Source: Hathewaya proteolytica DSM 3090 (GTDB taxonomy: Bacteria > Bacillota > Clostridia > Clostridiales > Clostridiaceae). Taken from it: a stretch of DNA of 32,000 bases. Numbering within the stretch: the first letter of the stretch is position 1; each line of letters opens with the position of its first letter. The notes below the pieces were generated by a model that ran no database searches, was not told the origin of the DNA, and worked only from the letters and a program-made list of their open reading frames with translations. Positions 10,137-21,760 of the stretch are shown piece by piece. The stretch is taken from NCBI RefSeq assembly GCF_900142225.1, contig NZ_FRAD01000006.1:131548-163547 (forward strand). The letters are read 5' to 3'. Position numbers and translations under genes: made by a program.

Positions 10137-12389
10137 TCACATCTTCCTTTCATGCAATTTTAGCAACAATGACAAAACATGCTTAATTTTATTTCTAGGT
10201 ACAATATTGTCGATAAACCCATGTTCCTTAAGGTATTCCGCACTTTGGAACCCCTCTGGAAGCTTCTGTTTTAAGGTTTGCTCGATTACCCTAGGACCAG
10301 CAAAACCGATTAAGGCTTTTGGCTCTGCAATAATGATATCTCCAAGACTTCCAAAGCTGGCAGTTACTCCTCCTGTGGTAGGATTGGTGAGAACTGATAT
10401 ATATAGTAGACCAGCCTTTTTATGCTTTTCTAGTGCAGCAGAAGTCTTTGACATCTGCACCAGTGAGAAAATTCCCTCCTGCATTCTAGCTCCACCACTA
10501 GCGCAGAATATTATGATAGGCAACATATGTTTTGTAGAGTACTCAATTGCTAAGGTAATTTTTTCCCCCACAGCAGTACCCATGCTTCCCATCATAAATC
10601 TACTGTCTAACACAGCTACAACCACAGCTTCTCCACTTATTTTACCTACGCCTGTAACTACGCCCTCTTTAAGGCCAGTTTTTTCTTGAAGTTTTCTTAT
10701 CTTTTCATCATAATCTGGAAATTCCAAAGGATTGCTTCCAACAATGTCCTCATTGATCTCTCTAAAAGTGCCCTCATCGAGGACTAAACTTATTCTATAA
10801 TTTGCCGATATCTTAAAATGATAATCACATTCTGGGCAAACATACATAGAATCCAATAAAGATATCTCTGAAAAAGTTTTTCCACAGTGTGGACAATTTT
10901 CAAAAAGAGCACCTTCTATTTCCTTTTTTTCAATAGTTTTTGATTTATTTAATAGCTTTGCTTGGTATACAAGTTCAGCTTTTCTTCTTTTAAAAGGATC
11001 TTTAAATTCCTTTACGGCTTCAGCCGTTCTCTTATCTATCTCAAGTATATTATCTGCATTGTTTTCAATAAAACCAGTATTATAATTGCCCTTTAAAAAA
11101 TCAGGATGAAACATCAACAGATGCTGAAAAGATTGATTTGTTTCTATGCCTTCAATTAGAGTTTCCTCTAAGGCTCTTCTCATCCTCCTAATGGCATCCA
11201 GTCGATTATTTCCGTGAACAATCACCTTTGCAATCATAGAATCATAAAATGGATTTGTCTCGTACCCATTGTATATGGCACTATCTATCCTTACCCCATT
11301 GCCCTGTGAAAAATGCAAAAAGCTTATCTTTCCCGGACAGGGTTTGAAATTCTCCTTAGGATCTTCGGCATTTATTCTGCACTCAATGGCATGACCTCTA
11401 AACGTTACATTTTCCTGATTTATGTCCAGGGAAAGACCTGATGCGATTCTTATCTGTTGTTTCACAATATCTATCCCAGTAATCAACTCAGTGATAGGGT
11501 GTTCAACCTGTATCCTTGTATTCATCTCTATAAAATAAAAATTGTTATTTTCGTCTACTATAAATTCTATTGTACCTGCCGATTCGTAGCCCGATGCTAT
11601 CCCCGCTCTAACAGCGGCTTCACCCATTTCTCTTCTAAGCTCTTCAGTGAGACATTTCGCTGGAGCTTCTTCTACCATCTTTTGATTTCTTCTCTGCATA
11701 GAGCAATCTCTCTCTCCAAGGTGGATCACATTTCCGTGGCTGTCGGCTAGTATTTGGAACTCTATATGTTTAGGATTTATTATTAGCTTCTCAATGTACA
11801 TTTCACCATTGTTGAAGCAAGCTACCGCCTCTGCCCTTGCAGACATAAAGGCTTGAGCTATTTCTGCCTTTGAATTAACTCTCCTCATCCCTCTGCCTCC
11901 GCCCCCCGCTGAGGCTTTTATAAGCACAGGATATCCTATTTCTTCTGCTATCTTTTCTGCTTCCTCCACAGTATCCACGGTTCCCTCTGAACCCGGTACT
12001 ACTGGAACATTGTTTTCTTTCATCAGCTTTCGCGCCATGGATTTGTTGCCCATCTTATCCATTACGTCTCCACTAGGGCCTATAAACTTTACTCCTGATT
12101 TTTGGCACAGTCTAGCGAACTCGCTATTTTCAGATAAAAAACCGAAGCCTGGGTGTATGGCTTCACACCCAAGTTCCGTTGCCACAGTGAGTATGTTTTT
12201 CATATTTAAATAGCTATCCTTTGCCTTGGGTGGCCCTATACAAACTGCTTCAGTGGCAAACATAGAATGGAGTGCTGTTTTATCTGCTGTAGAGTATACA
12301 GCCACAGTATCAATCCCCATATCTCTGCACGCCCTGATTATTCTTATTGCAATTTCACCTCTATTGGCAATGAGTATCTTTTTAAACAT
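10137..12389 (-). CDS. accC/accD: Fused biotin carboxylase (AccC, residues about 1-450) and carboxyltransferase beta subunit (AccD, residues about 480-750)
   Basis: N-terminal [17 protein letters not shown], the ATP-grasp glycine loop ([10 protein letters not shown]) and [11 protein letters not shown] match AccC. After a roughly 40-aa Lys-rich linker comes the AccD zinc ribbon CPHC...CPEC, followed by GSMG and GGARMQEG motifs. One uninterrupted 750-codon frame. Its start overlaps the accB stop (ATGTTTAA). Confidence 0.88.
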
Positions 12390-13656: not shown

Positions 13657-14601
13657 CTACAGATTTATTTCCATGATCTTTTCTCCTGTAATATTGGGAT
13701 CAGTTCTAGAGTACATAAGGTAGCCATCCTTAAGTTCAAGTTTTATAACTCCAGCCTCATTAAGGTATTCAACATAGGATCGCACCATTCTTTGCATAAA
13801 ATTGTATTTGTAACTGTTTTTGATGGGTATATTGAACTTTTCTACTGCAGCCTTTAATATATCCTCTATAGTCATAGAACCTTTTATAACAGAGTACACC
13901 CCTCTTGCCCTGTCCTTATAAAACATAATATTGTCCTCAATGAGTTCATTTATATTATCATAAACACCTTTATGGGCTATTATATACATAGAGTTATGCA
14001 ACTTCTTAAGGCTATTCTTTGTCTTTAGATCTAAAGACAAAATATAAGCGTAGGGCATTTTTGCCCCCTTCATCACATCATAGCTGATAAGAGAATCACC
14101 TATATATGCTACATCGTCTGGTGTAATTATTCCTATTTGAGCTGGACTATGCCCCGGTAGGTGCAAAACATGAAATTTTACGTTAAACATGCTAATACAT
14201 TCATCACGATCAGAAACCATGATGTCCGTTTCAAAGACTGAATCCCTATAATATGTTTCCACCTCAGTGAGGGTTTGCATATTATAATACATCTTAAGAT
14301 TTGAAGAAGAACTGCAAATTAAAGCCTCATAAGCAGGCATAGCAATGATACAACCGTATTTTTCTTTAAAATATCCACAATTGCTAACATGGTCCATGTG
14401 AAAATGGCTACAAATTATACCTTTTATCCTTAATCCCTCTTTAAGCAGTGCTTCCTCTATACCTTCCCGTTCACCCTTAGCCCATCCAGCATCTAACATT
14501 ATAACTTTATCATCATCTATTTTATAAAAAGGAACATAGGTCATTCCTGTATCAATAAAAAATGTATTTCCCTTTGCATTAATAATGTCCGTAACGCCCA
14601 C
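13657..14601 (-). CDS. MBL-fold metallo-hydrolase with a C-terminal winged-helix-like extension
   Basis: HFHMDHVSN (HxHxDH zinc motif), then later HLPGHSP and AHKG. GTG start only 33 nt after the kinase stop, with no terminator between them. Confidence 0.8.
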   Translation of the reverse strand: MGVTDIINAKGNTFFIDTGMTYVPFYKIDDDKVIMLDAGWAKGEREGIEEALLKEGLRIKGIICSHFHMDHVSNCGYFKEKYGCIIAMPAYEALICSSSSNLKMYYNMQTLTEVETYYRDSVFETDIMVSDRDECISMFNVKFHVLHLPGHSPAQIGIITPDDVAYIGDSLISYDVMKGAKMPYAYILSLDLKTKNSLKKLHNSMYIIAHKGVYDNINELIEDNIMFYKDRARGVYSVIKGSMTIEDILKAAVEKFNIPIKNSYKYNFMQRMVRSYVEYLNEAGVIKLELKDGYLMYSRTDPNITGEKIMEINL

Positions 14602-14634: not shown

Positions 14635-15987
14635 TTAAACAATCTTTTTATCTATTTTTTCACTTATATTTGTTCTCATCCAAATTTCTGCTGTAAACAT
14701 ATCCTCGCTACACTCTAAGTTAAAGGTTATATTGTCGTACTCATTAACTATTTTCTTTAAATTGTATAACCCTATTCCTCTGCCGTTTTCCTTTGTAGAA
14801 TAGCCCTTTTGTGTCAACTTATAAATTTCATCCACTCTTTTAACACAACTATTTTGAACTACAAAAACCATACTATTATCTTTTTTTATAATACCAAAAT
14901 TAAGATTTTTATTTATCGTCTTTTGGGCCTCCTCTATGGCATTGTCTAAAAGAATTCCAAACACCCTCATGCAATCAATGTATTCCATGGGGATTTTGTC
15001 CACAGGCTCTGAAATGTCAATAAATAAATTGCATCCATTACTTTGCGCCTTCATGAGTTTAGATATTATTATAGATTTAAATGGTAAAATTTTTATATTT
15101 TTTAATTTTACAAAGAAATCATTTTTCTCCATGTAATGTTGTGTAGGCAATATACTCTCCCTAAAATATGTTTCCAAGCCATCATAATCTCCAGAATCAA
15201 TGTATCCTTCCATGGACATCAGTATATTTTTGTAATCATGCTTAAATTGCCTTATATTTGTATACAACTCTTCCATATACCCTGCATATTCTTCCATTCT
15301 TTGAATCTCTTCATTCTTCCTTTTTATTTCCATTTCCTTCACGGAATACTTGTTGTACATATTGGCGCTGAATACAGCAGATAAAATGGAAAAAAGAAAA
15401 ATCACAAGATTTATGAGATAGTTTTCATCAGCTTTTACTACCATCTTATTTATGATAAAAGATCCTATTATCATAACACCGCAAATAAAAATATTAGCAT
15501 AAACGTATATTAGCCTTACCTTATTTACTTTTTTGCTGTTATCATTAATTTTAGTTTTGCTAAAATCTTTGATGATTTTCCCAAATATATTGGAAAGAAT
15601 AAGTATACCAGCACAGGCACATAAAAAATAAATGGTCAGACTAACCCACCTGTAGTCTCTTAAAATACTCTTTCTAAGCACATTGGATATTAAATTGGAT
15701 ATAATGTCGCTTACTAAAAAAATAATTAAAGTAGATATACTATAAACAATATTGGGTATAATCTTCACAGTTTTATCGTGAAAATAATTATACAAAAATA
15801 GCACAATAGGAATAGAGCATAAATTTATAAATATATCTCTAAATATATACCCTATGATCCAAAAGCACACAAGAGTAATTAAAAGAACTGCGCCTTCCTT
15901 GAAGCTTATCTTCTTATCTTTTAAAATACAAAACCCCATTATTACAAATAAACATGTAACAAAAGAGGTAACTAATACTAATGGCAT
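14635..15987 (-). CDS. AgrC/ComD-type (HPK10) membrane sensor histidine kinase
   Basis: About 6 N-terminal TM helices. H-box RQFKHDYKNIL, N-box ILLDNAIEEA, G-box GRGIGLYNLKKIV (GHKL ATPase). SD AAGGGGGG. Confidence 0.88.
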   Translation of the reverse strand: MPLVLVTSFVTCLFVIMGFCILKDKKISFKEGAVLLITLVCFWIIGYIFRDIFINLCSIPIVLFLYNYFHDKTVKIIPNIVYSISTLIIFLVSDIISNLISNVLRKSILRDYRWVSLTIYFLCACAGILILSNIFGKIIKDFSKTKINDNSKKVNKVRLIYVYANIFICGVMIIGSFIINKMVVKADENYLINLVIFLFSILSAVFSANMYNKYSVKEMEIKRKNEEIQRMEEYAGYMEELYTNIRQFKHDYKNILMSMEGYIDSGDYDGLETYFRESILPTQHYMEKNDFFVKLKNIKILPFKSIIISKLMKAQSNGCNLFIDISEPVDKIPMEYIDCMRVFGILLDNAIEEAQKTINKNLNFGIIKKDNSMVFVVQNSCVKRVDEIYKLTQKGYSTKENGRGIGLYNLKKIVNEYDNITFNLECSEDMFTAEIWMRTNISEKIDKKIV

Positions 15988-16086
15988 GTTTTCCCCCCTT
16001 AATTTGTGTTTTACTTTATATTAATTTATCTAATAACATTATACTATAAACATAGCGTAATTCGGATATGTTTTTTCGCCAAATAG

Positions 16087-16118
16087 AAAAAAAGCGCTGC
16101 AAAATTCTACATTTTACA
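16087..16118 (-). terminator. Weak AU-rich hairpin plus U-run between the ABC-like gene and the kinase gene
   Basis: Minus-strand RNA UGUAAAAU-guaga-AUUUUGCA, then GCGC and UUUUUUU. The stem is short and AU-rich, so termination would be partial at best. Confidence 0.35.
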
Positions 16119-16153
16119 ACACTTTTCCCCTTAAACTTTCTATAAATATTCTC

Positions 16154-16597
16154 TTATTGTATATCTATATCATTGCATATAAATTTTAACTCCTCAATGT
16201 CCGATGAATACACAATAAAATTCTTTTTTTCTTGAGCGCTTATTTCATTTATCAAATTCTTAATCTCTATTCTACCTTGCTGGTCAAGTCCACATATTGG
16301 CTTAACTAATTCAATGGGGGATGTATCATTTAGCAACTTCTCCGCTATGTGAATCTTTACCATCATCTCTGGTGTATATTTAGATAACCGTGTTCTTTTG
16401 AATTTCTCAAGACCTACTATTTTTAATATATGCTCTATATCATAAGCTTTCTTACATTTTAGAAAACAAAATATTTTAAGATTGACATATGTGCTCAGGA
16501 ACCTAATAACAAATGGATACTTCCTATTCTCCATTCTATTCTTAACCTGTTTTCTGTCATTATATATGTAAACCCCTTTTATTATGCCTTGCTCCAC
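16154..16597 (-). CDS. Degenerate ABC-ATPase-like protein (C-terminal two thirds of a nucleotide-binding domain, no Walker A)
   Basis: Collinear with the ABC NBD template but decayed. The signature LSGGQ position reads LSKYTPEM. Walker B LILDEP reads IELVKP. The D-loop GLD is retained. The H-loop SSH reads SSD. No GxxGxGKS/T anywhere. GTG start 5 nt after ACGGAGGTG, overlapping the rSAM stop by 1 nt (TAGTG). Confidence 0.6.
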   Translation of the reverse strand: MEQGIIKGVYIYNDRKQVKNRMENRKYPFVIRFLSTYVNLKIFCFLKCKKAYDIEHILKIVGLEKFKRTRLSKYTPEMMVKIHIAEKLLNDTSPIELVKPICGLDQQGRIEIKNLINEISAQEKKNFIVYSSDIEELKFICNDIDIQ

Positions 16598-17979
16598 TAT
16601 TGCACCTCCGTATATTGCTGGCTACGTCTCATCTTTTTTACAAGTTCTACAATAACTTCTTCTGTAATCCGCTTATGCATCTCACAATTAACTTCACTTT
16701 GTCTATGAATATTTCCAGTTTCAAAATAATTAGATCCTATGCATCCATGACATATGGTATTATTAAAACAATTTTTGCAACGTTCATCGTTAAACTTGCT
16801 AAAATTTATAAGTTTCGTCTTTATTTCATTATATTTTTTCGATAAAAACAAATCATCTTCATAAATATTTCCCATTTTATACTCCTGTTGATCTATGAGC
16901 ATAAAGCAGGGATATACATCACCATTTACGGAAACTGATAGTAAAACCAAACCAGCCTCACATAAATACTTGCAAACTTGCTTTTTCTTCAAAATATTTA
17001 TAACGGTACTTATAAGATCATTAATGGGTATATCACCAGAATTTTCTCCCATGAGATCCGAAACCGATTTTACGAACTCATCTCTATTGGATAAAATAAA
17101 TTCATCATCTTCATTTCCCGAGACCGGAGTTATATGAAAATGTTCTATGCCAAATTCTTCCTTGCCGTATTTTATAATATCCTTTATCTTTACACCCATT
17201 TCTTCATGTACCCTATTATACGTGGACTCTATGCAGGATGGTTCCCCTGTGAATTTTCTTAAACGCATTATATTGTCCCCTACAACTCTTCCCGTTCCTT
17301 TTCCGTTTTTAAAAATCCTCATCTTGTCATTTACACTCTCCGGCCCATCCAGGCTAACAGTGACATGAATATTGTATTTTTTAATGATCTCTAACAACTT
17401 TTCGTCCATAACAGTTCCATTGCTAACCATGCCAAGCTTTGTTTTTTCTTTTTCTTCGTCCTTAAACTTTTCCTGTACATATTTACCAATAACCTCTATT
17501 CCCTGAGGATTTAAAGTGGGTTCCCCTCCAAAGATTTGTATGTTTTCTATATTATCATAATGTCCATAGAAAACATCCAAGGCTTTTATTATGGTATCTT
17601 CACTCATCATACATTCCTCTGAACAGTAGTTTCCTCCATTGGCATAACAATATTTACATGCAAGATTGCACACATTTGTGATGTTGATAACCAGTTTCTT
17701 TAGTATGTTTACTTCTTCTTTTCCGCTGTTAACTACCCCTTTGTCATTTTGTTTCTTATTATGACCCCATCCACAATTACAGTTTTCATCAATAACTTTT
17801 TTTAAAGATTCGTATGATTTATCGTCACAAGAAAATTGTTCCATAGTATGCTCTTTATTAATGCCTTCAATTATATCTTTCATTACATTCCTAGTCAGCT
17901 TATTTATCTCATAGAATCTAAGAGTATCAGGGAAAAAGGCCACTGTTATACCATCTTTTTCTACAAAATGTGGTTTCAA
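16597..17979 (-). CDS. Radical SAM / SPASM-domain peptide-modifying enzyme with an N-terminal RRE-like (PqqD-like) region
   Basis: CX3CX2C cluster in NITNVCNLACKYCYANGG. GGEPTL SAM-binding motif. C-terminal Cys-rich SPASM-type region (CKYLCEAG...VYPCFML...CKNCFNNTICHGCIGSNY...CEMH). The first ~70 aa (ITVAFFPDTLRFYEINKLTRNVMKDIIEG) resemble RiPP recognition elements. TTG start 5 nt after GGAGGGG. Confidence 0.88.
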   Translation of the reverse strand: MKPHFVEKDGITVAFFPDTLRFYEINKLTRNVMKDIIEGINKEHTMEQFSCDDKSYESLKKVIDENCNCGWGHNKKQNDKGVVNSGKEEVNILKKLVINITNVCNLACKYCYANGGNYCSEECMMSEDTIIKALDVFYGHYDNIENIQIFGGEPTLNPQGIEVIGKYVQEKFKDEEKEKTKLGMVSNGTVMDEKLLEIIKKYNIHVTVSLDGPESVNDKMRIFKNGKGTGRVVGDNIMRLRKFTGEPSCIESTYNRVHEEMGVKIKDIIKYGKEEFGIEHFHITPVSGNEDDEFILSNRDEFVKSVSDLMGENSGDIPINDLISTVINILKKKQVCKYLCEAGLVLLSVSVNGDVYPCFMLIDQQEYKMGNIYEDDLFLSKKYNEIKTKLINFSKFNDERCKNCFNNTICHGCIGSNYFETGNIHRQSEVNCEMHKRITEEVIVELVKKMRRSQQYTEVQ

Positions 17980-18044
17980 AACAACCCCTCCATACTTTGA
18001 TACATCAATAGGTAAGGAATATAAACTACCCGGTTCTATTTAAT

Positions 18045-18182
18045 TTATATCTGACACATAATACCTAAGCAGACATTACCACACCAATTTCCGTCACGCC
18101 AACCTCCATCCTTTGACTCCTTCACTAGCTTGTCTACGTCTATTTCTACCATCATAATGTCATTTTCACGTTTCTTATCCAT
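18045..18182 (-). CDS. Unannotated 45-aa RiPP precursor peptide: MDKKRENDIMMVEIDVDKLVKESKDGGWRDGNWCGNVCLGIMCQI
   Basis: Hand-translated from the minus strand. SD AGGAGGTGG 7 nt before the ATG at 18182, TAA stop at 18045-18047. Charged leader ending in GG, hydrophobic C-terminal core with 3 Cys (CX3CX4C) and 2 Trp. Lies 65 nt upstream of the rSAM gene on the same strand. Confidence 0.75.
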   Translation of the reverse strand: MDKKRENDIMMVEIDVDKLVKESKDGGWRDGNWCGNVCLGIMCQI

Positions 18183-18228
18183 TATTTATCCACCTCCTAT
18201 ACTTTTTTTACAACAAAGTTATTGGTTT

Positions 18229-18296
18229 AAAATAAAAAAGACAACAGATGCATTATTCTCAACCATGCCTATCTTGAGAATACTGTATATGTTGCC
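18229..18296 (-). terminator. Long hairpin plus U-tract (intrinsic terminator/attenuator) in the leader between the LytTR-box promoter and the precursor gene
   Basis: Minus-strand RNA: GGCAACA-uauacag-UAUUCUCAA-(11-nt loop)-UUGAGAAUA-augcauc-UGUUGUC, followed directly by UUUUUUAUUUU. The inner stem is 9 perfect bp and the outer stem is 7 bp. Confidence 0.55.
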
Positions 18297-18358
18297 TTAA
18301 TTTTATCACAATATTTTACTTTATTTTCAATATTATCTTCAAATGTGCTTGTTATATC

Positions 18359-18419
18359 ACAAACGTTTAAATTATATATTTTCACATATCCTAAACGTAG
18401 TTTTTATATCCTAAACGTA
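18359..18419 (-). promoter_or_regulatory. LytTR-type direct repeats plus a -10 box (activator-dependent promoter of the precursor/rSAM operon)
   Basis: Minus strand: tTACGTTTAGgatataaaaacTACGTTTAGgatatgtgaaaataTATAATttaAACGTTTGTg. TACGTTTAG occurs at 18411-18419 and 18391-18399 (20-bp period; the extended 14-nt repeat is TACGTTTAGGATAT). Both copies fit the AgrA-type consensus [TA][AC][CA]GTTN[AG][TG]. TATAAT at 18371-18376 lies 14 nt after the proximal repeat, with no -35 hexamer. A third consensus-fitting site AACGTTTGT is at 18359-18367. Confidence 0.7.
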
Positions 18420-18420
18420 A

Positions 18421-19146
18421 TTACTTTTTCAGACCAGTCAAGCATCTAAAAGAAACAAAACACTGTTCGCCATTTTTCATCATTAAAATCCTTCTTTTTT
18501 TATCCACCTCTATAATATTATTTTTATTCACTATGTAGGCTCTGTGTGATCTATAAAAGTTTTCCGGTAAATTTTCCTCAAACTCTCGCAAAGTCCCGTA
18601 AATCTCAAAAATCCTGTTTTTCTCGTGAACTACAAGCTTATGTGGTGACTGTGATGTTTCAATGAACATAACCTCATCCAACATAATTTTGATTTTTCTA
18701 CCCTCTTGCTCTAACAAAAGCACATTTTCTTTTTTCTCTGTCTTTTCAAAATTATCATTAATGTAAGATAAGGTTTTCTGTAGATTGGCTCGTACATTGT
18801 TAAAATTATCCTTAATAATATAATCAATGGCCTCAACTTTGTATTTAAACGTAAGGAAACTCATTTCGGAATGAGTAGTTAAAAAAATAATATAGCCAAG
18901 AGCATCCCTCTCCCTTATAAGACTGGCAAGCTGAAGTCCATTCACACTGTTGTTTAAATCTATATCCAGAATGTATATCCCCCTACGTACATTGTTTTCC
19001 TCTATGTATTCCAGTACTTGGTCCGGAGTTCTCGCACTGAGTTTTAACTGAAAGTCAAATTCCCATTGTCCTATTAGATCACTTACAATCTTCTCTATTT
19101 TACTGCATTGAATAGAACTGTCTTCACATATTATAACTGAAAGCAT
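18421..19146 (-). CDS. LytTR-family response regulator (AgrA/ComE-like)
   Basis: N-terminal receiver domain (VIICEDSS...IYILDIDL phospho-acceptor Asp context). C-terminal LytTR domain (VMFIETSQSPHKLVVHEKNRIFEIYGTLREFEENLPENFYRSHRAYIVN). The ATG at 19146 has no adjacent SD. Confidence 0.88.
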   Translation of the reverse strand: MLSVIICEDSSIQCSKIEKIVSDLIGQWEFDFQLKLSARTPDQVLEYIEENNVRRGIYILDIDLNNSVNGLQLASLIRERDALGYIIFLTTHSEMSFLTFKYKVEAIDYIIKDNFNNVRANLQKTLSYINDNFEKTEKKENVLLLEQEGRKIKIMLDEVMFIETSQSPHKLVVHEKNRIFEIYGTLREFEENLPENFYRSHRAYIVNKNNIIEVDKKRRILMMKNGEQCFVSFRCLTGLKK

Positions 19147-19276
19147 ACGGTCATGATAAGGAATATCTTTTCGTTATCCCCTAATTCCTCCTCTTCAGAT
19201 TTGTCATATTAATAAGAAATTATCTACATCTATTATACATTAATAATTATATTTTTCAATATATAGTTAAAACAAG

Positions 19277-19363: not shown

Positions 19364-19741
19364 CTATTTTTTTTTATCATCCATTTCATCTAGCATATTT
19401 CTCAATTCTGTTAAATCCTCTTCTCCTATAGCATTGCCATCGTATAAAGATGTAACAAAGCGACTTAGAGAATTTCCAAACATCTTTTTGAAAATGGATT
19501 TTCCTTCTTCCTGAAGATACTTATCCTCATCCACCAAAGGAGAATAATAATTGATTTTACCTTGCTTTTCTTTCTTTATAAATCCTTTATCCTCCAGTCT
19601 AGATAAAAATGATAATACTGTATTGGGTAGGATATCTCTGCTTTTATCTAGCTTAGCTTCTATATCCATTCTTGTAACAGGGCCCTGTGAGTGCCATATT
19701 ATCATCATCAGCTCTAACTCAGAGTCAGGTAACTTCTTCAT
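19364..19741 (-). CDS. BlaI/MecI/CopY-family winged-helix repressor (no cognate BlaR1-type sensor gene adjacent)
   Basis: N-terminus LPDSELELMMIIWHSQGPVTRMDIEAKL...PNTVLSFLSRLEDKGFIKKEKQGKINYYSPLV is the penicillinase-repressor wHTH pattern. Start moved to the ATG at 19741, which follows GGAGGAGGG. Confidence 0.8.
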   Translation of the reverse strand: MKKLPDSELELMMIIWHSQGPVTRMDIEAKLDKSRDILPNTVLSFLSRLEDKGFIKKEKQGKINYYSPLVDEDKYLQEEGKSIFKKMFGNSLSRFVTSLYDGNAIGEEDLTELRNMLDEMDDKKK

Positions 19742-19776
19742 GTACTTCCCTCCTCCTTCAATATTCATTAGACGTT

Positions 19777-19846
19777 TGCCTAACTATATTAACAGTATAT
19801 TGCTTTTTATTTATTATGTCAACAATTATTTTAGGCACATGCCTAA
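19777..19846 (-). promoter_or_regulatory. Promoter of the BlaI-family gene flanked by a TTAGGCA/TGCCTAA dyad and an extra half-site
   Basis: Minus strand: TTAGGCAtgTGCCTAA (19831-19846), then TTGACA (19817-19822), 17-nt spacer, TATACT (19794-19799), then a further TTAGGCA half-site (19777-19783). The 2-nt spacer rules out an RNA hairpin, so a protein-binding dyad is more likely. Confidence 0.5.
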
Positions 19847-21141
19847 TTATACCACCCATTCCACACTTTCAGGTCAGAAAGGTATTGTTCCTCTACTGCA
19901 GGAACATAAAAAACTCCATAAGTATTTAAACCCTTATCCTCTTTCATTGTAGGAATTTCCACATAAATTTTGTAATAGGGCATATAATTTATATCCTTGC
20001 CATTTCTGTATACAAGCTCTGTCTTGCGTATATACTGTTCTCCTGGAAACTTTTCAGGTACTGTAGAGATGTATTTACCTTTGCAAAGGAGTTCCTCAGC
20101 TTTTTCCTTTGTAATAATAGGGTAGTACCCTAGTTTCTCGGAAAGATCAGGTTTATCAATGGTCATGCCAGAGAAATCACCATTTTCATTGTATATAATG
20201 GATATTATATTAAAATTATAGTTTATGATTTTGTCTATATCATTTTCTTTATCATTGTAAAAGTTAAAATTGAACCCACCTAGCTCACCATCATAGGTAT
20301 AATTTCCACCATGTATGTTTGCTTTAGGATTTTTCATAGGAATTATCTTATTGTAAGTATTTTTTATATAATCTTGAGATTTAAGGTGTTTTTCGTAACT
20401 TTCTTGTTTATTACCTCTTATTTTATATTCCTCTGGCAGTTCAAAAGGCTTAACAAATTCTATAGTGGTTTCCACATGGCAATCTACACTTATATTGTAC
20501 TTATCAGATGAAATGGTAGCACTTTTCAGTATATTATAGTCAAGTTCATTAAATTCAATTCCCACTTCTGAATCCCTCTCAACCTTAGAATTTATTTCTT
20601 CTTTATTTGGATGAATTTCTACAGGGTATTTTTCAGTGTCAATACCTAAAAATTCTGCTACTTCATAGGCACGTTTTTTTATGGGTTCTATATCAACCTT
20701 TATGGGCCTTCCGACTTCATCGTAGGAAAGCTTACTTTTAAACACCGGCAACCTAGTGATGTTCATGGATTCATTCCACGGATTCCCGTTTTTTAATTCA
20801 CTAATATCATAGGCCATATAACCCTCATAACCCATACCATCCGTAGAAAAACTACTGAATAAACACAATTTTTCTAGTTGGCCATTTTGATTTTGTTCAT
20901 GGGCTTTATCATCATTATAATCCACTTGAAAACTGTATTTATTACCTTGGTATTTGGGTTTTATTCTAGATTTTAAATAAATTCCTGTACCAACTACAGC
21001 ACACATAATAACAGAAGCCGCCACCACTCCGTATCTTTTCCATGGAATACTATGCTTCATTACAAGATTCTCTTCCTCTGCTTCATTTATGATATCCTCA
21101 CTTAGCATTCCCATGATTTGAAATATCCTTTCCCTCTTCAT
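19843..21141 (-). CDS. Membrane-anchored protein coupled to the sigma factor (putative anti-sigma factor with a large extracytoplasmic domain)
   Basis: About 35 cytoplasmic residues (MKRERIFQIMGMLSEDIINEAEE), one TM segment (YGVVAASVIMCAVVGTGIYL), then about 370 extracytoplasmic residues with no motif I recognise. Its ATG overlaps the sigma gene stop (ATGA). The anti-sigma call rests on position and topology only. Confidence 0.5.
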   Translation of the reverse strand: MKRERIFQIMGMLSEDIINEAEEENLVMKHSIPWKRYGVVAASVIMCAVVGTGIYLKSRIKPKYQGNKYSFQVDYNDDKAHEQNQNGQLEKLCLFSSFSTDGMGYEGYMAYDISELKNGNPWNESMNITRLPVFKSKLSYDEVGRPIKVDIEPIKKRAYEVAEFLGIDTEKYPVEIHPNKEEINSKVERDSEVGIEFNELDYNILKSATISSDKYNISVDCHVETTIEFVKPFELPEEYKIRGNKQESYEKHLKSQDYIKNTYNKIIPMKNPKANIHGGNYTYDGELGGFNFNFYNDKENDIDKIINYNFNIISIIYNENGDFSGMTIDKPDLSEKLGYYPIITKEKAEELLCKGKYISTVPEKFPGEQYIRKTELVYRNGKDINYMPYYKIYVEIPTMKEDKGLNTYGVFYVPAVEEQYLSDLKVWNGWYN

Positions 21142-21698
21142 ATATACACATCCTCCTTCTTCAAAAACACCTTAAGGGCTTTTCTTGTACGAAATAGAGA
21201 TGATAAAACGTTGCTTTTTGAAAGGCTGTATCTTTTTTGGATATCCTCTACACTATCACAATACCAGTACCGTCTAACAAAAATAAGTCTATTATGTTGC
21301 GACTGTTTTCCTAAAAACTCATCTATTAACCTGGCAATTTCTTTTTCCTCTATGCTGCTTTCCACATCATTACTAGAAGGTATACACTGTTCCATCTCTG
21401 TTAATATAAACTCCATGTCACCATTGCCACGTTTTTTTGCTTTTTGTTTTTTATACATATCAAAGGATAAATGCCGTGTAATGCATCCAAGAAAACTTCG
21501 CATAGAATTAGGCCTCTCCTCTGGTATAGAGTTCCATGTGCGGAGATAAGTATCATTAATGCACTCCTGTGAATCTTCATTATCCTTTAAGATATTCATT
21601 GCTATTTTACAAAGATAATTTCCATACTTATTATCCGTTTCAGTTATGGCTTCCTCACACCTCTGCCAGTACAGTTCAACGATTTCTGAATCCTCCAT
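21138..21698 (-). CDS. ECF-type sigma-70 family RNA polymerase sigma factor
   Basis: Region 2-like (IVELYWQRCEEAI...DTYLRTWNSIP) and region 4-like HTH (RLIFVRRYWYCDSVEDIQKRYSLSKSNVLSSLFRTRKALKVFL). Start moved to the ATG at 21698, which follows AAAGGGGTG. Confidence 0.8.
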   Translation of the reverse strand: MEDSEIVELYWQRCEEAITETDNKYGNYLCKIAMNILKDNEDSQECINDTYLRTWNSIPEERPNSMRSFLGCITRHLSFDMYKKQKAKKRGNGDMEFILTEMEQCIPSSNDVESSIEEKEIARLIDEFLGKQSQHNRLIFVRRYWYCDSVEDIQKRYSLSKSNVLSSLFRTRKALKVFLKKEDVYI

Positions 21699-21760
21699 GA
21701 TATCACCCCTTTTCCCTTTCACCTATAAAGACGAATTTTTCAGTAGAAAATTGCATATTA

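Follow-up and report, generated by a model that had tools for sequence, protein, structure and literature searches.

In the staphylococcal and clostridial agr system (AgrB-AgrD-AgrC-AgrA), a polytopic HPK10 kinase with a HATPase_c_5 domain works with a LytTR regulator, paired LytTR boxes sit at the induced promoter, and the signal is a thiolactone. The sensor, peptide and maturation enzyme of agr form a hypervariable cassette inside a conserved frame. The three-component class II bacteriocin and competence systems (ComCDE, BlpRH/BlpC, PlnABCD, SppIP-K-R) also use an HPK10 kinase and a LytTR regulator to sense a ribosomal peptide and activate promoters that carry direct repeats. However, their signals are unmodified peptides with double-glycine leaders that are exported by C39-peptidase ABC transporters, and pherotype polymorphism occurs in comCD and blpCH. 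In lantibiotic autoinduction (nisin/NisRK and subtilin/SpaRK), a post-translationally thioether-bridged peptide is the ligand of the histidine kinase that induces its own operon, although kinase and regulator belong to other classes (EnvZ-like kinase and OmpR-family regulator) and the thioethers are made by dehydration and Michael addition (LanBC/LanM) and not by radical chemistry.

Radical-SAM-modified peptides have also been linked to signalling. For example, the streptococcal RaS-RiPPs (streptide, streptosactin, tryglysin and others) are encoded by operons that are switched on by peptide quorum sensing, but the regulator is a cytoplasmic RRNPP-type Rgg that senses a separate SHP pheromone, with the RiPP as the output and not the signal (PMC13361665). 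CteB, which combines an RRE, an rSAM core and a SPASM domain with two auxiliary clusters, acts in clostridia on Cys-rich precursors with six Cys in 45 residues. A link of such SCIFF peptides to cell-cell signalling has been suggested (2020 work cited in PMC8326336 and bioRxiv 10.1101/2025.02.12.637840), but no receptor is known to have been identified. Finally, the yydFGHIJ epipeptide operon of B. subtilis encodes a peptide, an rSAM enzyme, an HExxH membrane protease and an ABC transporter. In this case YydG is an epimerase, and the epipeptide triggers the LiaRS stress system indirectly and not through a dedicated linked kinase (Butcher et al. 2007, cited in PMC8326336).

We have analyzed a 32-kb window (a stretch of 32,000 nucleotides) of Hathewaya proteolytica DSM 3090 in which an Agr-type kinase and LytTR regulator occur together with a radical-SAM peptide cassette. 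An earlier note, made from the sequence alone, had listed a LytTR regulator, two LytTR boxes with a TATAAT, a short peptide gene, an rSAM/SPASM enzyme with an RRE-like N-terminus, a decayed ABC-ATPase remnant and an HPK10 kinase, and had proposed that they form a self-inducing circuit in which the cross-linked peptide is the ligand, or at least the regulated product, of the kinase. All of the listed items are indeed present on the minus strand at the positions that the note gave, so its observation is confirmed. The features of the locus are as follows.

19232..19259 (-), sigma-70-like promoter of the regulator gene (TTGAAA-16-TATAAT)
18421..19146 (-), LytTR-family response regulator, AgrA-like, 241 aa
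18406..18418 (-), distal LytTR box ACGTTTAGGATAT, abutting the stop codon of the regulator
18386..18398 (-), proximal LytTR box ACGTTTAGGATAT, overlapping the -35 position
18371..18376 (-), -10 hexamer TATAAT of the box-dependent promoter
18354..18366 (-), third box-like site ACGTTTGTGATAT with 2 mismatches, just downstream of the -10, which could be chance
18227..18298 (-), imperfect 25-bp hairpin plus a U-tract in the 5' leader, between the promoter and the ribosome-binding site of the precursor, resembling a terminator or attenuator
18045..18182 (-), precursor peptide, 45 aa, with an acidic leader containing the MMVEIDVD motif and the core WCGNVCLGIMCQI (C-x3-C-x4-C)
16597..17979 (-), RRE/radical-SAM/SPASM peptide maturase, CteB-like, 460 aa, TTG start, predicted to form thioethers
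16154..16597 (-), conserved truncated ABC-ATPase-like protein, 147 aa, whose start overlaps the rSAM stop by one base (TAGTG)
16085..16131 (-), terminator-like hairpin (21-bp stem, U-rich 3' side) that ends the precursor-rSAM-ABC-like unit
14635..15987 (-), HPK10 (AgrC-type) histidine kinase, 450 aa, with a six-TM sensor (residues 3-208)
13657..14601 (-), MBL-fold hydrolase gene, 33 nt downstream of the kinase

Profile searches support the identity of the two-component proteins. The regulator matches Pfam LytTR (7.4e-21) and Response_reg (7.9e-11), while the kinase matches HATPase_c_5 (5.5e-17) and has six predicted TM helices and an H-box, FKHDYKN. AgrA and AgrC are the best-scoring curated NCBIfam families for these two proteins, but the scores of 180 and 178 bits are far below the respective equivalog cutoffs of 400 and 500. 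The regulator promoter matches 11 of 12 consensus positions, and no LytTR box with 3 or fewer mismatches lies between 19147 and 19363; constitutive expression of the regulator is an inference. In contrast, ACGTTTAGGATAT occurs exactly twice in the window, the two copies together forming a 17-nt direct repeat with 20-nt spacing, and each box fits the LytTR 9-mer consensus [TA][AC][CA]GTTN[AG][TG]. The -10 starts 22 nt after the start of the proximal box. RNA folding of the leader hairpin, which was first detected as an inverted repeat, gave a dG of -20.2 kcal/mol (z -3.8), with a z of -2.8 for the full leader, and this hairpin is absent from the leaders of two related loci, L083 and L082 (L numbers denote the sampled loci with related rSAM genes). 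The hairpin at 16085..16131 gave a dG of -24.8 kcal/mol (z -4.2).

The peptide ORF has an AGGAGG ribosome-binding site, and a phmmer search returned small ORFs at the same position in L082-L084, which shows that it is a real gene, although no curated family recognizes it. The maturase matches Radical_SAM (8e-19) and SPASM (5e-8), and its CX3CX2C motif (C104/C108/C111) and seven SPASM cysteines are invariant in the family. Its best match in the PDB is CteB (3.8e-31). An AlphaFold model (pLDDT 88.6) contains a beta-beta-beta-alpha-alpha-alpha unit at residues 4-67, and a Foldseek comparison matched it to CteB, its best fold match, over the full length (TM 0.73-0.82), confirming the RRE-like N-terminus. 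The enzyme falls below all NCBIfam cutoffs, including those of PapB and SCIFF, and belongs to no curated family, but the nearest curated families (PapB, SCIFF, nif11 and QhpD) all form thioethers. Pfam scans of the other ORFs of 90 aa or more found no AgrB, AgrD or C39-peptidase ABC exporter anywhere in the window, and the three ORFs without a Pfam hit do not look like AgrB.

The arrangement is not an accident of this genome. All seven sampled loci whose rSAM enzyme is at least 45% identical to that of the window (45-58%; L083/L084/L095, L089, L082, L090, L085 and L091) carry the orthologous regulator and 6-TM HPK10 kinase next to the rSAM gene and a precursor with a C-x3-C-x4-C core. The phmmer E-values are 1e-71 to 1e-105 for the regulator, whose orthologs in related loci are 53-66% identical, and 1e-69 to 1e-111 for the kinase. 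None of these loci carries AgrB, AgrD or a C39 transporter, and the C-x3-C-x4-C precursors are the only candidate peptide genes identified next to the two-component genes, in an ORF scan limited to ORFs with at least two cysteines upstream of the rSAM gene. The box ACGTTTAGGA, with 1 mismatch or fewer, lies 100-200 nt upstream of the precursor gene in the window, L083/84, L089, L082, L090 and L085, and in L085 it also precedes the ABC-permease-RR-HK operon. It is absent from that position in the loci without the regulator (L087, L088, L002-L005 and L092). The box spacing is 20 nt in the window and 21 nt in relatives, and in L082 and L090 the boxes are inverted.

Comparison with these relatives indicates that the interpretation in the earlier note is only partly supported. 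That the peptide is a regulated product is well supported by the conserved boxes, and the kinase/regulator and precursor/rSAM pairs do form one conserved functional unit. However, the gene described as a decayed ABC-ATPase remnant has homologs with the same boundaries in five related loci. It matches profile positions 78-195 of 223, lacks Walker A and the H-loop His, and has degenerate signature and Walker B motifs, so it is predicted from sequence to be catalytically dead, yet dN/dS is 0.20 and 0.42 with significantly fewer nonsynonymous changes than neutral (p 5e-5 and 0.011). It is therefore a maintained gene under purifying selection, and only about 4 clusters of this short form exist among 1.84e9 representatives. 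The gene order in which kinase and regulator are wrapped around the cassette is peculiar to this genome, as relatives have the order RR-HK-precursor-rSAM-ABC-like and the kinase is relocated here. In addition, the GG of the leader is not conserved, so this is not a double-glycine leader family. Lastly, more distant members of the family (L085, L091 and L087) encode a dedicated HExxH intramembrane protease, which hits the YydH/LiaK family at 1e-11, and an ABC-2 transporter. The absence of processing and export genes from the clade of the window is therefore a secondary loss, and it leaves a gap in the proposed loop.

The stronger proposal, that the peptide is the ligand of the kinase, gains real but indirect support from a dimorphism in a sister lineage. 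In this lineage the regulator gene and both flanks are 100% identical in nucleotides (dS 0.007), while between two discrete alleles the kinase sensor is 58% identical in aa, the cytoplasmic half of the kinase 77%, the precursor 58% (cores SGNWCGGGCYGIYCY and SGNWCGNGCYGIFCTV) and the rSAM enzyme 73%, with dS of 0.66-1.1. Allele I was recovered from 4 independent samples and allele II from 2, each about 100% identical within itself. This is the pattern of agr and comCD specificity groups, and it is the best available evidence for the ligand role. It was seen in one sister lineage with two alleles and not in H. proteolytica itself, however, and a second pair (L085 versus L091) shows only uniform divergence.

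Compared with agr, the locus shares the kinase and regulator classes, the paired boxes and a variable cassette of sensor, peptide and maturation enzyme inside a conserved frame, but it has no AgrB and no AgrD-like precursor, the gene order differs, no RNAIII-type effector is evident, and a thioether-bridged peptide is predicted in place of a thiolactone. It differs from the class II bacteriocin and competence systems in having no conserved GG site, no C39 transporter and a dedicated rSAM maturase. From the CteB and SCIFF systems, which share its enzyme architecture, clostridial hosts and Cys-rich substrate, it differs in the precursor family, with a C-x3-C-x4-C core at the extreme C-terminus, and in the genetic linkage of a dedicated kinase and regulator. 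Unlike the streptococcal RaS-RiPPs, the sensor is a membrane HPK10 kinase and no separate pheromone gene is present. Lantibiotic autoinduction provides a precedent for the logic proposed below. The gene architecture of the yydFGHIJ operon is that of the full-form relatives, whereas the clade of the window lacks both the protease and the transporter.

We consider it somewhat more likely than not that the locus is a peptide-autoinduction circuit that joins Agr-type sensing parts to a radical-SAM signal-making module, which would be peptide quorum sensing built without the usual Agr signal-making genes. In this view the regulator is made from its own promoter and, once phosphorylated by the kinase, would bind the two ACGTTTAGGA boxes that overlap the -35 region and switch on the operon of precursor, maturase and ABC-like protein. 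The maturase would dock through its RRE on the acidic leader (conserved motif (I/V)E(F/I)D) and cross-link the three cysteines of the core, most probably as thioethers. Functions not encoded in this locus would then remove the leader and export the peptide, and detection of the mature peptide by the membrane sensor of the kinase would close a positive feedback loop. Our analysis establishes the parts, their conservation as a unit, the conserved boxes, the predicted fold of the enzyme and the co-varying two-allele structure, whereas the thioether chemistry, binding of the regulator to the boxes, secretion and, above all, the role of the peptide as the kinase ligand are inferred. In the window neither the regulator nor the kinase gene has a box, and a strong terminator-like hairpin separates the kinase from the induced operon, so feedback would act only on the peptide operon. 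The terminator-like hairpin between the box promoter and the precursor gene also counts against the model, as do the need for unlinked maturation and secretion functions and the differences in box spacing and orientation among the relatives.

Other explanations remain possible. The peptide may be an output only, such as a bacteriocin or other effector, with the kinase sensing a different signal, for example a thiolactone AIP from an agrBD pair outside the window, as the orphan VirSR system of C. perfringens does. The boxes and synteny prove regulation and not sensing, the clade of the window has no processing or export genes at the locus, and the ancestral full-form cluster looks like a standard secreted-RiPP or bacteriocin cluster with a lantibiotic-protection-like ABC transporter. 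We nevertheless regard this as unlikely, since divergence of the kinase sensor together with the local precursor and maturase, while the regulator and flanks stay identical, is hard to explain if the ligand is encoded elsewhere, and no AgrB and, within the limits of the ORF scan given above, no second peptide gene lies within 8 kb in any of the seven linked loci. A self-induced bacteriocin, with sensing that only serves autoinduction as with nisin and NisRK, overlaps with our preferred model and differs from it only in biological purpose. In its favor, full-form relatives carry an immunity-type ABC-2 transporter whose ATPase is closest to lantibiotic-protection subunits (243 bits) and several precursor paralogs (3 in L085, 6 in L002 and 4 in L088), and relatives of the enzyme include sactipeptide and ranthipeptide maturases. 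We regard this reading too as less likely than not, given that the clade of the window has lost the permeases and the active ATPase and thus has no recognizable immunity, yet all genes remain under purifying selection, which fits a non-toxic signal better than a toxin.

It is very unlikely that the short-form locus is a relic that no longer makes an extracellular peptide and whose genes are decaying or kept for an intracellular or unrelated role. The loss of the processing and export genes, the truncated ABC ATPase, the rearrangement of the kinase away from the regulator and the hairpin in the leader would be consistent with such decay. However, all five genes are intact in at least four lineages, with dN/dS of 0.08-0.20 between L082 and L090 and 0.21-0.42 between the two alleles, and the catalytic cysteines, the H-box and the boxes are all conserved. 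The truncated ORF also keeps identical boundaries in every lineage. Membership of the MBL-fold hydrolase gene downstream of the kinase in the system is doubtful, as it matches Lactamase_B (4e-15) but has no homolog in any related locus.

All of the features that the earlier note had described at this locus of Hathewaya proteolytica DSM 3090 are present on the minus strand, and its observation therefore held in full. The rSAM protein is SAMN02745248_00921, and an identical locus occurs in an independent sequencing run. The features of the locus are:
18421-19146, minus strand: response regulator (RR) with a receiver domain and a LytTR domain
18354-18366, minus strand: third box-like site
18227-18298, minus strand: terminator-like hairpin with a U-tract
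18045-18182, minus strand: 45-aa precursor peptide
16597-17979, minus strand: 460-aa radical-SAM/SPASM enzyme
16154-16597, minus strand: 147-aa ABC-ATPase-like ORF
16085-16131, minus strand: strong terminator-like hairpin
14635-15987, minus strand: HPK10-type histidine kinase (HK)
13657-14601, minus strand: MBL-fold hydrolase gene

The two-component pair resembles that of the agr quorum-sensing system in both of its proteins. The kinase has the HPK10-type HATPase_c_5 domain (5.5e-17), six predicted TM helices within residues 3-208 and an H-box FKHDYKN, while the regulator has a LytTR domain (7.4e-21) and paired boxes at the promoter that it presumably induces. AgrC and AgrA are the best-scoring curated families for these two proteins, but both scores are far below the NCBIfam equivalog cutoffs (178 of 500 bits for AgrC and 180 of 400 bits for AgrA), so the kinase is AgrC-like but not an AgrC orthologue. 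In contrast, the signal-making half of agr was not found in the window or in the related loci. Pfam scans of the remaining ORFs in the window found a fatty-acid synthesis cluster, a BlaI-like repressor, an ECF sigma factor, an ABC-F protein and others, but no AgrB, AgrD or C39 exporter. No AgrB domain was detected in any window ORF of 90 aa or more, nor among the called genes of seven related loci, and a hidden AgrB among the ORFs without a Pfam hit was rejected as their size and topology do not fit. The precursor is likewise not of the AgrD type, which has an amphipathic N-leader, a thiolactone Cys and a charged C-terminal tail, as it ends 0-2 residues after the last of its three Cys, has no C-terminal tail and is paired with an rSAM enzyme.

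The enzyme has the features of radical-SAM/SPASM thioether (sacti-/ranthipeptide) maturases. Its Radical_SAM domain (8e-19) carries a CX3CX2C motif in which C104, C108 and C111 are invariant across 30 family members, and its SPASM domain (5.2e-8) is accompanied by seven further invariant cysteines (C340, C358, C401, C404, C410, C413 and C432) as expected for two auxiliary [4Fe-4S] clusters. By sequence, its closest solved structure is the thioether-forming SCIFF maturase CteB (3.8e-31). An AlphaFold model (pLDDT 88.6) predicts that residues 4-67 form a beta-beta-beta-alpha-alpha-alpha unit with pLDDT above 90, which is the PqqD-like winged-helix topology of a RiPP recognition element (RRE), and a Foldseek comparison superposes the whole model on CteB over 460-475 columns with TM 0.73-0.82. 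The best curated families all form thioethers (PapB, SCIFF maturase, nif11 maturase, QhpD). However, the enzyme does not belong to any curated equivalog (PapB, SCIFF maturase, GggB, CcpM and others), as the best hit is PapB at 172 bits (cutoff 340) and SCIFF reaches 155 bits (cutoff 425). The same result was obtained for two distant relatives, from the family loci L091 and L088, and no family recognizes the precursors. This is therefore an uncurated RiPP family for which thioether chemistry is inferred only from three invariant Cys in the core and from the nearest families.

About 100 full-length relatives of the enzyme exist at 31-58% identity, none of which has a functional name, and we examined 14 family loci besides the window (numbered with the prefix L). 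Of 80 loci from a scan of a genome collection with the rSAM family alignment, in which the patterns were the generic CxxxCxxC and GGEP motifs, only 4 were true family members. The precursors form one family with an acidic leader containing a conserved (I/V)E(F/I)D or LEE..P region and a core at the extreme C-terminus with C-x3-C-x4-C, often CGxGC(W/Y)GxxC, and the window's WCGNVCLGIMCQI fits this pattern. The GG at residues 26-27 of the window's peptide is not conserved in L082, L083, L089, L085 or L091, so this is not a double-glycine leader family. The orthologous regulator and kinase occur in two architectures. The short form has the order RR, HK, precursor, rSAM and then a 144-153-aa ABC-like ORF, and is found in L083/L084/L095, L089, L082 (Clostridiaceae bacterium 14S0207, whose regulator cluster is named Hathewaya limosa) and L090. 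The full form has an ABC ATPase, two ABC-2 permeases, RR, HK, one to three precursors, rSAM and then a protein of about 395 aa, and is found in L085 and L091. The 395-aa protein is an intramembrane HExxH metalloprotease whose best hits are the daptide protease (4e-28) and YydH/LiaK (1e-11), both below cutoff, while the full-form ATPase is closest to lantibiotic-protection subunits. The ABC systems of the full-form loci are of the ABC-2 type with separate ATPase and permeases, and no C39-peptidase ABC exporter was found in the related loci. In the full-form locus a SAM synthetase gene directly follows the HExxH protease gene, which may supply SAM for the rSAM enzyme. In L085 this gene and the kinase gene are each split into fragments, which may reflect indel errors in that assembly (L086 3131-4327; L085 10634-11275 and 5531-6846).

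All seven sampled loci at 45% or more rSAM identity have the two-component pair, whereas at 42% or less, six of seven lack it (L003, L004, L005, L087, L088 and L092) and the seventh, L002, has only a distant pair on the other strand. Distant family members carry tandem arrays of precursors (L002 6760-7913; L088 7051-7924; L004 and L005 7400-7935). A Ruminococcus MAG has six, and Bacillus cereus, Enterococcus ureilyticus and Anaerocolumna have longer Gly/Cys-rich cores with many Cys, but none of these has the linked kinase and regulator. Further linked loci probably exist (proteins P0021/P0130 and P0007/P0129), as an rSAM homologue (41% identity) and a regulator homologue (48%) have longest contigs of the same 22,252 nt, and another rSAM/regulator pair comes from the same MAG, Firmicutes bacterium ADurb.Bin419. 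The window has the short-form gene set, but its kinase has moved to the end, behind the hairpin at 16085-16131 (z -4.2). Thus, the order that the note described as a kinase/regulator pair wrapped around the rSAM cassette is a local rearrangement. The MBL-fold hydrolase gene lies 33 nt beyond the kinase, and the two may form a separate transcription unit created by this rearrangement. We do not regard the hydrolase as part of the system, as it is absent from all relatives.

Regulation of the precursor operon was addressed by phylogenetic footprinting. The box ACGTTTAGGATAT occurs exactly twice in 32 kb, with the copies 20 nt apart and abutting the regulator's stop codon, and a TATAAT starts 22 nt after the start of the proximal box. 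The precursor ORF further downstream has a strong ribosome-binding site. A third box-like site, ACGTTTGTGATAT (2 mismatches, 18354-18366), starts 5 nt after the -10 hexamer, where it could act as an operator, although it may also be chance. The core ACGTTTAGGA (1 mismatch or fewer) lies 100-200 nt upstream of the precursor gene in the window, L083/84, L089, L082, L090 and L085. In L085 it precedes two precursor genes and also the ABC-permease-RR-HK operon (L085 2135-2144), such that the transporter and the two-component genes would be autoregulated there, unlike in the window. A degenerate second copy lies 21 nt downstream in L089 and L085, and L083 appears to have one too, although that reading was by eye only. 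In the Hathewaya limosa-like loci (L082 7655-7685 and L090 4411-4441) the two boxes are in inverted and not direct orientation (TCTTAAACGT ... ACGTTTAAGA, 21 nt apart), which is unusual for LytTR regulators, and L091 has only degenerate copies. An automatic search for direct repeats spaced 18-24 nt found them only in the window. In relatives the second box is degenerate or inverted. Loci without the regulator have no box at that position, and elsewhere show only single hits, about the number expected by chance for a 17-kb locus. That the precursor operon is the target of the regulator is therefore a well-supported inference, with binding itself inferred from sequence conservation. In the window the regulator has its own near-consensus promoter and no box, and the kinase also has no box, so that any feedback would act on the peptide operon only.

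A complication is that a hairpin with a 25-bp imperfect stem (18227-18298, dG -20.2, z -3.8), followed by UUUUUUAUUUU, sits between the LytTR-box promoter and the ribosome-binding site of the precursor in the window, but is absent from the equivalent leaders of L083 and L082. It could be the terminator of the regulator gene, an attenuator, or the end of a short box-driven RNA. It may end the regulator's transcript, but it would also attenuate the induced one.

Evidence on whether the peptide is the ligand of the kinase comes from a sister lineage and not from H. proteolytica itself. Two loci from different samples, L083 and L089, have regulator genes that are about 100% identical in nucleotides (dS 0.007), with identity collapsing exactly at the RR/HK junction.

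Table. Nucleotide identity between L083 and L089 by region
Regulator gene: about 100%
Kinase sensor half: 63-78%
Kinase catalytic half: 75-89%
Precursor: 58-71%
rSAM: 72-86%
Last ~300 nt of the ABC-like ORF: 90-100%

A look-up of every contig that encodes this exact regulator revealed two discrete alleles. Allele I is L083, L084, L095 and L098, from four samples, and allele II is L089 and L097, from two samples, with each allele about 100% identical within itself. Between the alleles, amino-acid identity is 58% in the sensor, 77% in the cytoplasmic half of the kinase, 58% in the precursor and 73% in the maturase. Both flanks are identical in nucleotides apart from a variable heptamer repeat in the regulator's 5' UTR, so this is one lineage with a dimorphic cassette. 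The repeat, (GAATAAA)n with about 3 to 12 copies, lies between the promoter and the ribosome-binding site of the regulator gene (L089 1-159; L096 about 790-913; L097 1-92; L083 about 1270-1440, partly masked), and is a possible length-variable 5' UTR. Synonymous divergence inside the cassette (0.66-1.1) is about 100 times that of the adjacent regulator gene. A conserved frame, a hypervariable sensor plus peptide plus maturation enzyme, and discrete alleles are how agr specificity groups and comCD/blpCH pherotypes look, and this pattern is hard to explain if the ligand of the kinase were encoded elsewhere. The support is nonetheless limited to one lineage with two alleles. A second mosaic test, of L085 versus L091, showed only uniform divergence at 65-85% with no sharp breakpoints, and so is not an independent replicate of the dimorphism.

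The ORF at 16154-16597, which the note had called a decayed ABC-ATPase remnant, is not a private pseudogene. It has homologues with the same N- and C-terminal boundaries in all five short-form loci (phmmer 1e-17 to 1e-39) and is related to the full-length ATPases of the full-form loci (2e-18). Alignment with the full-length ATPases of L085, L091 and L087 shows that Walker A is deleted, that the signature YSLGMKQRL has become YTPEMMVKI, that Walker B ILDEP has become ELVKP and that the H-loop CSH has become YSS, with loss of the His. Only the D-loop region, GLDxQGxIEI(K/R)N(L/V)I, is conserved. Nonsynonymous changes are significantly fewer than neutral, with dN/dS of 0.20 (p 5e-5) for L082 versus L090 and 0.42 (p 0.011) between the two alleles. 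Among 1.84 billion representative proteins only about four clusters have this short form, and a metagenome scan with the alignment of this ORF returned only two weak, irrelevant hits. It is a maintained, catalytically dead derivative of the cluster's ATPase, and the simplest history is one ancestral deletion that removed the protease and the transporter. The short-form loci encode no leader protease and no exporter. If the peptide is secreted then unlinked functions must process and export it, for which there is precedent in that streptococcal SHP and enterococcal pheromones depend on the housekeeping protease Eep and the exporter PptAB.

We moderately favor an autoinduction loop in which the rSAM-cross-linked peptide is both the regulated product and the ligand of the kinase. 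The note had proposed a self-inducing circuit in which such a peptide is the ligand, or at least the regulated product, of the kinase, and this interpretation is partly supported. The analysis shows that the feature is real and conserved, and regulation of the peptide operon by the linked two-component system is well supported, whereas the thioether chemistry, binding of the regulator to the boxes and secretion are inferred. The claim that the peptide is the ligand is likewise an inference, resting on one strong piece of evolutionary evidence. It is unlikely, though not excluded, that the peptide is only an output of the system with the kinase sensing another signal, given that the two-allele structure would then be hard to explain. 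That the peptide is a self-induced bacteriocin overlaps with the favored reading and differs only in purpose. We consider it doubtful, as the loss of immunity genes in this clade argues against a toxin. A relic is very unlikely, as purifying selection on all five genes argues against decay. More speculatively, and somewhat less likely than not, this may be a previously unrecognized class of Gram-positive autoinducer, in which a radical-SAM thioether-bridged peptide is the cognate ligand of an AgrC-type kinase with agr-like allelic specificity groups where sensor, peptide and maturase co-diversify. In this view the Hathewaya clade would have stripped down a bacteriocin-type cluster to a pure signalling module by losing the protease, permeases and active ATPase while keeping a catalytically dead ABC-ATPase fragment for a new role.

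The system is assembled from known part families. It works like agr in its sensing half and in its population genetics, but has no AgrB or AgrD at the locus. It works like the three-component systems of class II bacteriocins and competence, but lacks the double-glycine leader and the C39 exporter. Its enzyme is a CteB/PapB-like maturase outside of every curated family. Radical-SAM peptides under quorum-sensing control are known in streptococci, where the regulator is a cytoplasmic Rgg and the signal is a separate SHP peptide (PMC13361665). SCIFF ranthipeptides have been reported to take part in clostridial quorum sensing (Chen et al. 2020, as cited in PMC8326336 and bioRxiv 10.1101/2025.02.12.637840), although no receptor is known for them. 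Nisin and subtilin are precedents for a modified peptide acting as the ligand of a kinase, though with different kinase and enzyme classes. Literature searches, which covered subscription journals incompletely and so give absence of evidence rather than proof of novelty, found no description of an rSAM/SPASM RiPP or sactipeptide paired with an HPK10/LytTR system, AgrC or pherotypes, and none of the core motif.

Peptide quorum sensing through AgrC/ComD-type kinases has been described with only two ways of making the signal, namely AgrB-made thiolactones and unmodified double-glycine peptides exported by C39 transporters. A third route by radical-SAM cross-linking would widen the chemical range of Gram-positive pheromones. 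It would also give rSAM-modified clostridial peptides, for which a role in signalling has been suggested, a genetically linked receptor that makes the question directly testable. The two natural alleles of the sister lineage constitute a ready-made specificity experiment of cross-activation against cross-inhibition, as was done for the agr groups. The small conserved cassette, with five genes, one promoter and two boxes, is also attractive as an orthogonal signalling part for anaerobes.

Elsewhere in the window, a 750-aa ORF within the fatty-acid synthesis cluster (10137-12389, minus strand) reads, as judged from the sequence only, as a biotin carboxylase fused to an AccD-like zinc-finger carboxyltransferase beta subunit. 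Directly upstream of the system (19364-21722, minus strand) lie a BlaI/MecI-type repressor, a single-TM 432-aa protein with no known domain that is possibly an anti-sigma factor, and an ECF-type sigma factor, which appear to be a separate module.
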